From a virus (Duplodnaviria; Heunggongvirae; Uroviricota; Caudoviricetes), in IMG/VR virus record IMGVR_UViG_2703718780_000024, positions 1 through 22,914 of that record: 22,914 bases of DNA; one strand, given 5' to 3'. Each line of letters starts with the position of its first letter. Position 1 is the first letter of the stretch. Of the stretch, positions 11,805 through 12,647 are shown in pieces. The notes under the pieces were generated by a model that saw only the letters and a program-made list of their open reading frames with translations, searched no databases and was not told the origin of the DNA. The translations under genes were made by a program, and so were the position numbers.

Positions 11805-11909
11805 GCCAAATTAACAATCGGAACTTCGTGAAGAGAAAGCATAATCCAAATCTGAATAATTAAGTTCAGCACTGTAAATAAAATTTAATCCTTAACTGGA
11901 GGTATATTT

Positions 11910-12122
11910 ATGTTAAATACACAGAAAGCCATTAATGCGGAAAAATATAACGAGTGGGCAAGAAAATTCTCTGAGCAGATTTTTAAAATTACTGGCGATG
12001 AGAATGCGGCAAAAAATGAATTAGAACCGTGGACGCCTGAAGGAGCCGACCCAAATTATTGCTGGAGGGAGGTTGATCCAGTTGATGCTGCAAATGAAGC
12101 TATGAGTTATCACAACGATTAA
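11910..12122 (+). CDS. Hypothetical small protein, 70 aa
   Basis: GGAGG RBS (ACTGGAGGTATATTT-ATG). The gene is AT-rich and is followed by a GNRA-loop hairpin at 12133-12148. Confidence 0.5.
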   Translation: MLNTQKAINAEKYNEWARKFSEQIFKITGDENAAKNELEPWTPEGADPNYCWREVDPVDAANEAMSYHND

Positions 12123-12234
12123 TGTCAGGAGGCCGCCCGAAAGGGCGGTAATGAATGGTCACATTATTTAGAAAAAATATCCGCGAAAGAGTAGAACAAC
12201 AGAATTTCTGTTTCTCATTCTGTTTATCGTGTTG

Positions 12235-12372
12235 ATGATACCGATATCCCCGTTAATCCTAGTCTGGATAATCGGAAAAATAATTGAGCCAGTTATTGAA
12301 TTGTATAACGACGTGGTATGGGCGTCATTCAACACACTGCACAATAAAATTAATCCGTATAAGGAAAACTGA
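12235..12372 (+). CDS. Possible small membrane peptide, 45 aa
   Basis: Translation MIPISPLILVWIIGKIIEPVIELYNDVVWASFNTLHNKINPYKEN. The hydrophobic stretch continues upstream in-frame (FLFLILFIVL), so the start is uncertain. The stop lies 1 nt before the next ATG. Confidence 0.3.
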   Translation: MIPISPLILVWIIGKIIEPVIELYNDVVWASFNTLHNKINPYKEN

Positions 12373-12373
12373 T

Positions 12374-12637
12374 ATGGCAACTTTGACAAAAAAAGAACGG
12401 GCATGGTTGAACGAATTACAGGAAGTTCTTGATCGCTGTCCATCACCGAAAAAAATTGGCTTTTACACCATTGGCGATAAAAGCATTTACCTGTATGACC
12501 TACGCCGCATGGATGAAATCATGGAGGCTCTTGATAATCGTTCGTCGATGGATTGGTGTGTTGCTGTTCATGATATGAATGCAGGGTTTGATGAAAAGAT
12601 TTTGTTCCCCTCATCAGTTGAAAGCACTGCGGGTTAA
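12374..12637 (+). CDS. Hypothetical small protein, 87 aa from ATG 12374
   Basis: AAGGAAAA RBS precedes ATG 12374. The six-frame ORF begins earlier at 12284. Confidence 0.5.
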   Translation: MATLTKKERAWLNELQEVLDRCPSPKKIGFYTIGDKSIYLYDLRRMDEIMEALDNRSSMDWCVAVHDMNAGFDEKILFPSSVESTAG

Positions 12638-12647
12638 GGAGTAACAC

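Follow-up and report, generated by a model that had tools for sequence, protein, structure and literature searches.

The 22,914-nucleotide (nt) window analysed here, the whole of IMG/VR record IMGVR_UViG_2703718780_000024, carries at 11,805-12,647 three small open reading frames (ORFs), which a sequence-only reading had taken for AT-rich morons of unknown function. We identified the entire window as prophage Sp10 of Escherichia coli O157:H7 Sakai; a 1.2-kb probe across the region is 100% identical there, as well as in EDL933 and many other enterohaemorrhagic E. coli (EHEC) genomes. The three predicted ORFs are all present on the plus strand, ORF1 at 11910-12122, ORF2 at 12235-12372 and ORF3 at 12374-12637, and an Ead/Ea22-like gene follows. 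ORF1 and ORF3 are conserved genes, while ORF2 is what is left of a frameshifted gene whose leader contains a hairpin behind a perfect Shine-Dalgarno (SD) sequence. We conclude, with a probability of about 0.7, that the region is a partly decayed accessory cassette of the ea / exo-xis type, located in the early-right operon of Sp10 directly behind a Rac-type replication module.

ORF1 and ORF3 are conserved protein-coding genes

ORF1 (ECs_1949, WP_000935420.1) encodes an acidic protein of 70 amino acids (aa) with an isoelectric point (pI) of 4.5 and a net charge of -7, and its AlphaFold2 model comprises three helices with a predicted local distance difference test score of 79. The protein matches phrog_4659, a narrow orphan family in PHROGs, from end to end. 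Among the matches listed, it has 120 homologues, every one at least 71% identical and nearly all of them found in Escherichia or Shigella. When 1.84 billion representatives were searched exhaustively with a profile, only three small proteins (P0243, P0244, P0248) were added as full-length relatives, together with some short fragments. Two giant matches of 2862 and 3770 aa were rejected as relatives, being repetitive proteins whose scores are sums over repeats.

ORF3 (ECs_1950, WP_000224233.1) encodes an acidic α/β protein of 87 aa (pI 4.9) that matches the ST64T Orf-87 family, phrog_1714, over its full length. Its profile search returned 305 proteins, the best 120 of which are nearly all stand-alone and ~80-90 aa long; counts of its homologues range from 135 to 305. 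The conserved motifs of ORF3 are RCPSPxKIGFYTIGD, YD and a C-terminal FPSxVxSTAG. The relatives come from P22-like, Chi-like, rV5-like and other phages, both temperate and virulent, whose hosts belong to nine genera. The median pairwise ratio of nonsynonymous to synonymous substitution rates (dN/dS) is 0.15 for ORF3 and 0.19 for ORF1. Together, the full-length family matches, the numbers of homologues and the low dN/dS values demonstrate that ORF1 and ORF3 are genuine conserved protein-coding genes under purifying selection. A minus-strand ORF of 92 aa (12168-12446) was set aside; two conserved genes lie opposite it, and no family match supports it.

PADLOC, NCBIfam and Pfam yield no functional family for either protein, and profile searches of the PDB returned only noise (E > 0.3). 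The fold of ORF3 is predicted with confidence, and the model has no neighbour among solved structures. Searching the literature by locus tags and accessions brought up no functional work, only a study by comparative hybridisation and a paper on a transcriptome network. Our best guess, held with low confidence, is that ORF1 and ORF3 are small cytoplasmic proteins that would most likely bind host proteins during lytic growth. This putative role is deduced from their size, charge and genomic company. A part in host takeover or anti-defence is possible for both proteins, and ORF3 in particular may be a new host-directed effector of one of these kinds.

ORF2 is the remnant of a frameshifted DUF4014 gene

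The hydrophobic 45-aa ORF2 exists as predicted, but it is a pseudogene fragment rather than a separate gene. It represents the 3' two-thirds of a DUF4014 gene (PF13198, phrog_1832) that spans 12155-12372 on the plus strand and is noted as 'frameshifted' by the Prokaryotic Genome Annotation Pipeline (PGAP). The Pfam match to ORF2 (45-47 aa) scores 56.8 bits over a cut-off of 23.2 and covers profile positions 26-72 of 72, and the phrog_1832 match has an E-value of 4e-28. As revealed by alignment with the intact gene gp12 of the Shiga toxin (Stx) phage ArgO145, one base is missing. Specifically, related IMG/VR copies read ...TTTAGAAAAAAATATCCG with seven A residues (A7), and Sp10 has a run of six (A6) at 12172-12177; 99 of the 104 related IMG/VR copies are in frame, with either A7 or AAAAGAA at this site. 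ORF2 is the remnant of a DUF4014 membrane-protein gene that was broken by the loss of one A from A7.

The repaired translation is 72 aa long: a basic N-terminus leads into a single transmembrane helix, and ~30 aa form the tail. At this locus of Sp10, no full-length ORF of ~72 aa with that N-terminus and a complete helix is found. Members of the family include L0067 of phage 933W and gp46 of epsilon15. The function of DUF4014, apparently that of a small inner-membrane protein with its N-terminus inside, is probably lost in Sp10. Two possibilities weigh against a complete loss. The stop codon of the 26-codon 5' ORF (UGA, 12233-12235) overlaps the AUG of the 45-aa ORF (12235-12237), and termination-reinitiation at this UGAUG could still make the 45-aa fragment, which retains only ~14 hydrophobic residues of the helix. 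Additionally, slippage on the A6 run may yield traces of the full-length protein. Some database records name DUF4014 proteins 'released from the phage upon host infection' or 'acetyltransferase inhibitor'; we found no experimental basis for either name, the epsilon34 genome paper is silent on the gene, and a literature search found no paper mentioning DUF4014.

Exact probes matched the A6 allele in 269 complete E. coli genomes and the A7 allele in 19. The latter include O55:H7 CB9615, where, in another prophage backbone, an intact A7 gene is flanked by ORF1 and ORF3 with the same protein sequences as in Sp10. The abundance of A6 raises the question whether this allele is alive, with a programmed -1 frameshift or transcriptional slippage on A AAA AAU tuning DUF4014 expression; a -1 slip there would restore exactly the A7 protein. 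We consider this very improbable. Nearly all related IMG/VR copies are in frame, a run of six A residues is short for efficient slippage, and the adjoining Ea22-like gene is broken too, as fits general decay. Neither a stimulatory structure nor an internal SD was noticed around the A6 site, no specific test being aimed at either. Judged from the strains listed, the 269 genomes probably derive largely from a few closely related EHEC lineages, and their number may reflect descent rather than selection.

The second broken gene lies immediately 3' of ORF3. Translation and comparison define a single Ead/Ea22-like reading frame at 12648-13133 on the plus strand, interrupted by an in-frame TAG at 12807-12809, which database annotation splits into two hypothetical proteins, ECs_1951 and WP_000365100.1. 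The intact 167-aa version in phage vB_EcoS-666R9 (666R9) reads ..PDDWYQRSAG.., and the gene matches phrog_60 and phrog_660. Two of the four cassette genes, DUF4014 and the Ea22-like gene, are inactivated in Sp10. We also observed a hydrophobic ORF of 27 aa at 13130-13213 (MTWPEAFTTVGIAMAVALVVYSICRWG). Its start codon and the Ea22-like stop codon overlap as ATGA; Pfam gives no match for it, and neither Sakai nor EDL933 has it annotated.

A gene for a hydrophobic single-pass peptide with that of a small acidic protein just 1 nt further on resembles a two-gene toxin-antitoxin or abortive-infection pair, with DUF4014 as membrane toxin and ORF3 as antitoxin, and a few database proteins read through both. 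These 'fusion' proteins proved to be frameshift read-through artefacts, among which P0252 runs through the alternative frame. We regard such a pair as highly unlikely, since DUF4014 lacks a fixed partner: an HNH endonuclease or Ea22-like gene follows it about as often as ORF3 does, and Chi-like and rV5-like phages have ORF3 but no DUF4014. Furthermore, Sp10 keeps ORF3 intact beside a broken putative toxin, and no toxin-antitoxin match was obtained in PADLOC or Pfam.

The genes belong to a shuffled accessory pool

Homologues of the cassette genes are spread over other phages. They include gp16 and gp12 of ArgO145, gp46 of epsilon15, gp27 of epsilon34, L0067 of 933W and Orf-87 of ST64T, which places the cassette in the ea / exo-xis pool; in ArgO145, epsilon15 and epsilon34 they lie in the early-left accessory region beside Ead/Ea22-like genes. 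The same genes recur beside Ead/Ea22, in many combinations, in lambdoid, P22-like, epsilon15-like and Stx phages other than Sp10. The order seen most often across 80 IMG/VR loci is LygF > ORF1 > DUF4014 > (ORF3 or HNH endonuclease) > Ea22-like, with ~45 variants. ORF3 and the HNH gene share one slot and resemble each other only over the first ~12 codons, and therefore a mosaic joint lies just inside the downstream gene.

The presence/absence polymorphism that the sequence-only reading had proposed to look for is borne out by comparative genomics. Phage 666R9 shares LygF, the AT-rich spacer and the hairpin with Sp10, and passes from these straight into its intact Ea22-like gene, with no ORF1, DUF4014 or ORF3. 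The spacer itself, which is 95% identical through 11902 in 666R9, travels with lygF.

A conserved SD-hairpin junction precedes unrelated genes

The hairpin at 12133-12148 was correctly recognised from the sequence as carrying a GNRA loop, but it belongs to the leader of the following DUF4014 gene and not to the end of ORF1. On the plus strand, a perfect SD sequence, AGGAGG, occupies 12127-12132, 22 nt before the DUF4014 start codon (ATG at 12155), and the hairpin CCGCCC-GAAA-GGGCGG fills much of the interval, with a G.U pair between 12132 and 12149 extending the stem to 7 bp. The centroid structure has a free energy of -15.5 kcal/mol. Once the stem is formed, 16 of the 22 nt would be looped out and the SD-AUG spacing cut to 5-6 nt. 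Both values agree with what is required of a split ribosome-binding site, namely an SD-AUG distance above ~13 nt and a hairpin that restores 5-11 nt. A role as terminator was rejected, as no T-run follows the hairpin and a terminator scan calls neither strand.

We then scanned viral contigs for the exact hairpin pattern, which recovered at least 125 copies in at least 120 stretches. Of the 125 copies listed, 111 (89%) are followed, 6-11 nt beyond the stem, by the start codon of an ORF of at least 30 aa, compared with 21% for random positions in the same loci, and AGGAGG is conserved immediately 5' of the hairpin in >200 copies. The genes behind it code for members of no fewer than four unrelated families, namely DUF4014, two types of Ea22-like protein and an acidic protein of 60 aa. 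DUF4014 has this SD and hairpin in front of it both with ORF1 and with an Ea22-like gene upstream, and in a third class of alleles the two elements are replaced by an ordinary AAGGAG-N7-ATG. The AGGAGG sequence and its hairpin thus constitute a conserved junction before several unrelated genes.

The commonest gene behind the hairpin encodes the extremely acidic 60-aa protein (MRKFKIIIETGIAGGDFEDEFEVDDD...), found at 2814-2996 of ArgO145 and in many IMG/VR loci and absent from the window; this protein is a possible DNA-mimic-like candidate. Two direct AGGAGG-hairpin copies lie ~1.06 kb apart in ArgO145 (2784-2806 and 3856-3878), and several contigs (L099, L121, L156, L165) also have two at about this distance. 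In ArgO145 one copy stands behind the ORF1 homologue and the other before DUF4014, with a block of three genes in between: one for the acidic 60-aa protein, one Ea22-like and one small ORF. A block bracketed in this way looks suited to deletion or insertion as a cassette.

Several observations limit the case for selection on the RNA structure. The 81-nt context of the hairpin is only modestly more stable than its shuffled versions (z = -1.9). The stem variants comprise three G.U-compatible C-to-T changes and one disruptive C-to-G change (6 loci), and the copies are near-identical. Because no compensatory double changes occur, selection on RNA structure rather than on DNA sequence is plausible but not demonstrated. 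The same near-invariance is expected of recombination homology, and a GC-rich GNRA hairpin in intercistronic position, present twice in some genomes, might alternatively act in RNA stability, processing or attenuation, or be a mere DNA recombination site, with no part in translation initiation. We think this exclusive alternative rather unlikely, since the perfect AGGAGG always abuts the 5' side, start codons of unrelated genes follow at 6-11 nt in 89% of copies, a canonical SD at 7 nt takes over where the hairpin is absent, and the missing T-run argues against an intrinsic terminator. Moreover, a recombination or stability function is compatible with a split ribosome-binding site.

Genomic context, base composition and expression

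The local map was taken from the Sakai and RefSeq (PGAP) annotations. cro-like and cII/YdaT-like genes precede an O-like gene (9041-9829), which is followed by the DnaC-like YdaV (9836-10582), YdaW (DUF1627) and LygF (DUF977, 'Ren-like exclusion protein' in PHROGs; 11367-11804). An AT-rich non-coding spacer of 105 bp with a GC content of 0.305 (11805-11909, plus strand) separates lygF from ORF1. Beyond the three ORFs come the two Ead/Ea22-like fragments, a C5 DNA methyltransferase and two convergent minus-strand genes, and the nin/Q-type genes DUF1367, YbcO and Q occupy 17.5-19.0 kb. Of the flanks originally described, the replication genes upstream are as stated, but nin genes begin only at ~17.5 kb and do not flank the region directly. 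ORF1, ORF2 and ORF3 themselves match no Nin family in Pfam, PHROG or NCBIfam.

The GC content of 11810-12640 is 0.390, as compared with 0.458 for the whole window and 0.512 for the replication genes (9041-11804). Composition is therefore not uniform, and the region is more AT-rich than its upstream neighbours, as had been proposed; however, the dip is not exceptional, given that 17% of all 831-bp windows have an equal or lower GC content. Nor is the downstream side GC-rich nin DNA: GC reaches 0.49 only over 12648-13133 and then falls to 0.34-0.37 over 13565-17064.

A crude consensus scan detected no sigma-70-like promoter on the plus strand of 11805-11909 and no terminator at the ends of the cassette. 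The genes follow the replication genes with intergenic gaps of 1-32 nt, each with its own SD. Because neither a promoter nor a terminator of its own was detected, we infer that the cassette is co-transcribed with the replication genes once the prophage is induced, starting at the early-right promoter, and is not transcribed in the lysogen. In a transcriptome network of oxidative stress, ECs1949 and ECs1951 cluster with recT of Sp10 (PMC7286201), which is weakly consistent with induction. Given so crude a scan, the 105-bp spacer may still harbour a promoter that is weak or not of the sigma-70 type, which would count against joint transcription.

These results bear directly on the sequence-only reading, according to which the genes are independent AT-rich morons, self-expressed (possibly from the prophage) and encoding anti-defence, toxin-antitoxin-like or host-takeover proteins. 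The lower GC content, the presence/absence polymorphism, the small acidic products and the occurrence of ORF3 relatives in virulent phages, as would suit a function in lytic infection, all speak for it. Nevertheless, it appears improbable, as no promoter- or terminator-like site brackets the genes and they are tightly packed in an operon. No defence, anti-defence or toxin-antitoxin family was matched by ORF1, ORF2 or ORF3 in Pfam, PHROGs, NCBIfam or PADLOC, and six peptide strings from ORF1, DUF4014 and ORF3 do not occur in the supplementary text files of one large screen of accessory genes (PMC12373910). In addition, inactivation of two of the four genes in the prophage of hundreds of genomes argues against a benefit to the lysogen. 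The genes are moron-like in being accessory, compositionally distinct and variable in presence, and yet, packed tightly with no promoter or terminator of their own, they are not strict morons.

Other features of the window

Rfam returned nothing within the region, either at the gathering threshold over the whole window or at E ≤ 1 over 11700-13300. Downstream, 13255-13379 resembles a sok / hok-leader-like RNA remnant (RF01794; 50.2 bits for a gathering score of 59; E = 3e-10) with no hok ORF behind it, as if a hok/sok locus had been cut short at the start of the methyltransferase island. This AT-rich island (13565-17064) encodes a Dcm-type C5 DNA methyltransferase on the plus strand and, facing it on the minus strand, a Methyltransf_35 (PF20553) protein and a GHKL-type ATPase (HATPase_c_3). 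PADLOC matched only the methyltransferase, and the island may be a restriction-modification-like or defence island. Elsewhere, gathering-level Rfam matches were obtained for RalA antitoxin small RNA, DicF, STnc100 and two tRNA genes, their coordinates being listed together as 1557-1735, 6135-6186 (minus strand), 20166-20338, and 19144-19216 and 19320-19393. These matches fit a Rac/Qin-like mosaic prophage.

Discussion

Overall, the region is mostly ordinary: it is neither a moron nor a toxin-antitoxin pair and holds no known defence-related family. Our analysis corrects the annotation of a much-studied pathogen genome in two places, as the small hydrophobic ORF is a pseudogene fragment and the hairpin is the leader of the next gene. 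The results give no indication of a novel type of system and have no bearing on the virulence of O157. As a lead, the portable SD-hairpin-AUG junction, which stands before at least four unrelated phage gene families, is the most useful. ORF3, being widespread and free of structural neighbours among solved structures, is a reasonable candidate for phage accessory-gene screens.

The junction could have two roles. In the RNA, the hairpin would loop out the intervening nucleotides and leave a working spacing of ~6 nt, giving the kind of split ribosome-binding site seen in T4 genes 38 and 25. In the DNA, the unit of 22-30 nt, present in one or two copies per phage, would provide short homology for swapping or deleting cassettes, and recombination between two ArgO145-like copies would yield the Sp10 order ORF1-hairpin-DUF4014. 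Boundary sequences at mosaic joints are an established concept (PMC3233612). That AGGAGG-hairpin-AUG is a portable dual module combining both roles and that, separately, ORF3 is a new host-directed effector is a joint proposal we put forward only tentatively. If the junction works as in the two T4 genes, split ribosome-binding sites would extend to lambdoid phages, and a translation signal would be tied to a recombination boundary.

The closest relative of the cassette as a whole is the exo-xis / ea region (Ea22/Ead, orf60a, orf61, orf63 and orf73; L0065-L0067 in 933W), with which it shares gene families, small early genes and highly variable combinations. Genes of that region are transcribed early and bias the lysis-lysogeny decision (PMC8614690). 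The Sp10 genes, however, lie in the early-right operon behind the replication genes rather than between exo and xis in the early-left one, and the exo-xis genes with functional studies (orf60a, orf61, orf63, orf73 and ea8.5) are all absent from the Sp10 cassette. Like Hendrix-type morons, the cassette genes differ in composition from their neighbours and are present or absent between close relatives; unlike them, they show no detected promoter or terminator of their own, and half of them have decayed in the lysogen.

The junction invites two further comparisons. As with the boundary (linker) sequences of lambdoid phages, a short conserved intergenic sequence is common to otherwise unrelated neighbouring modules, and some genomes have two copies, where the gene order is consistent with exchange. 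The Sp10-type boundary differs in coinciding with a structured translation-initiation region, and recombination at it is deduced from comparative arrangement. T4 genes 38 and 25 are documented hairpin-bridged split ribosome-binding sites, with the distance in gene 38 reduced from 22 nt to 5 (PMC3014915). The Sp10 leader shares with gene 38 an SD-AUG distance that is too long (22 nt in both), a stable hairpin lying wholly in between and a spacing restored to 5-6 nt, and, as for both T4 genes, the arrangement is conserved among relatives (PMC3014915). Unlike the T4 sites, it is known from sequence and predicted fold, with no covariation seen. Finally, whereas the T4 hairpins are gene-specific, the lambdoid unit is portable and stands before several unrelated genes.

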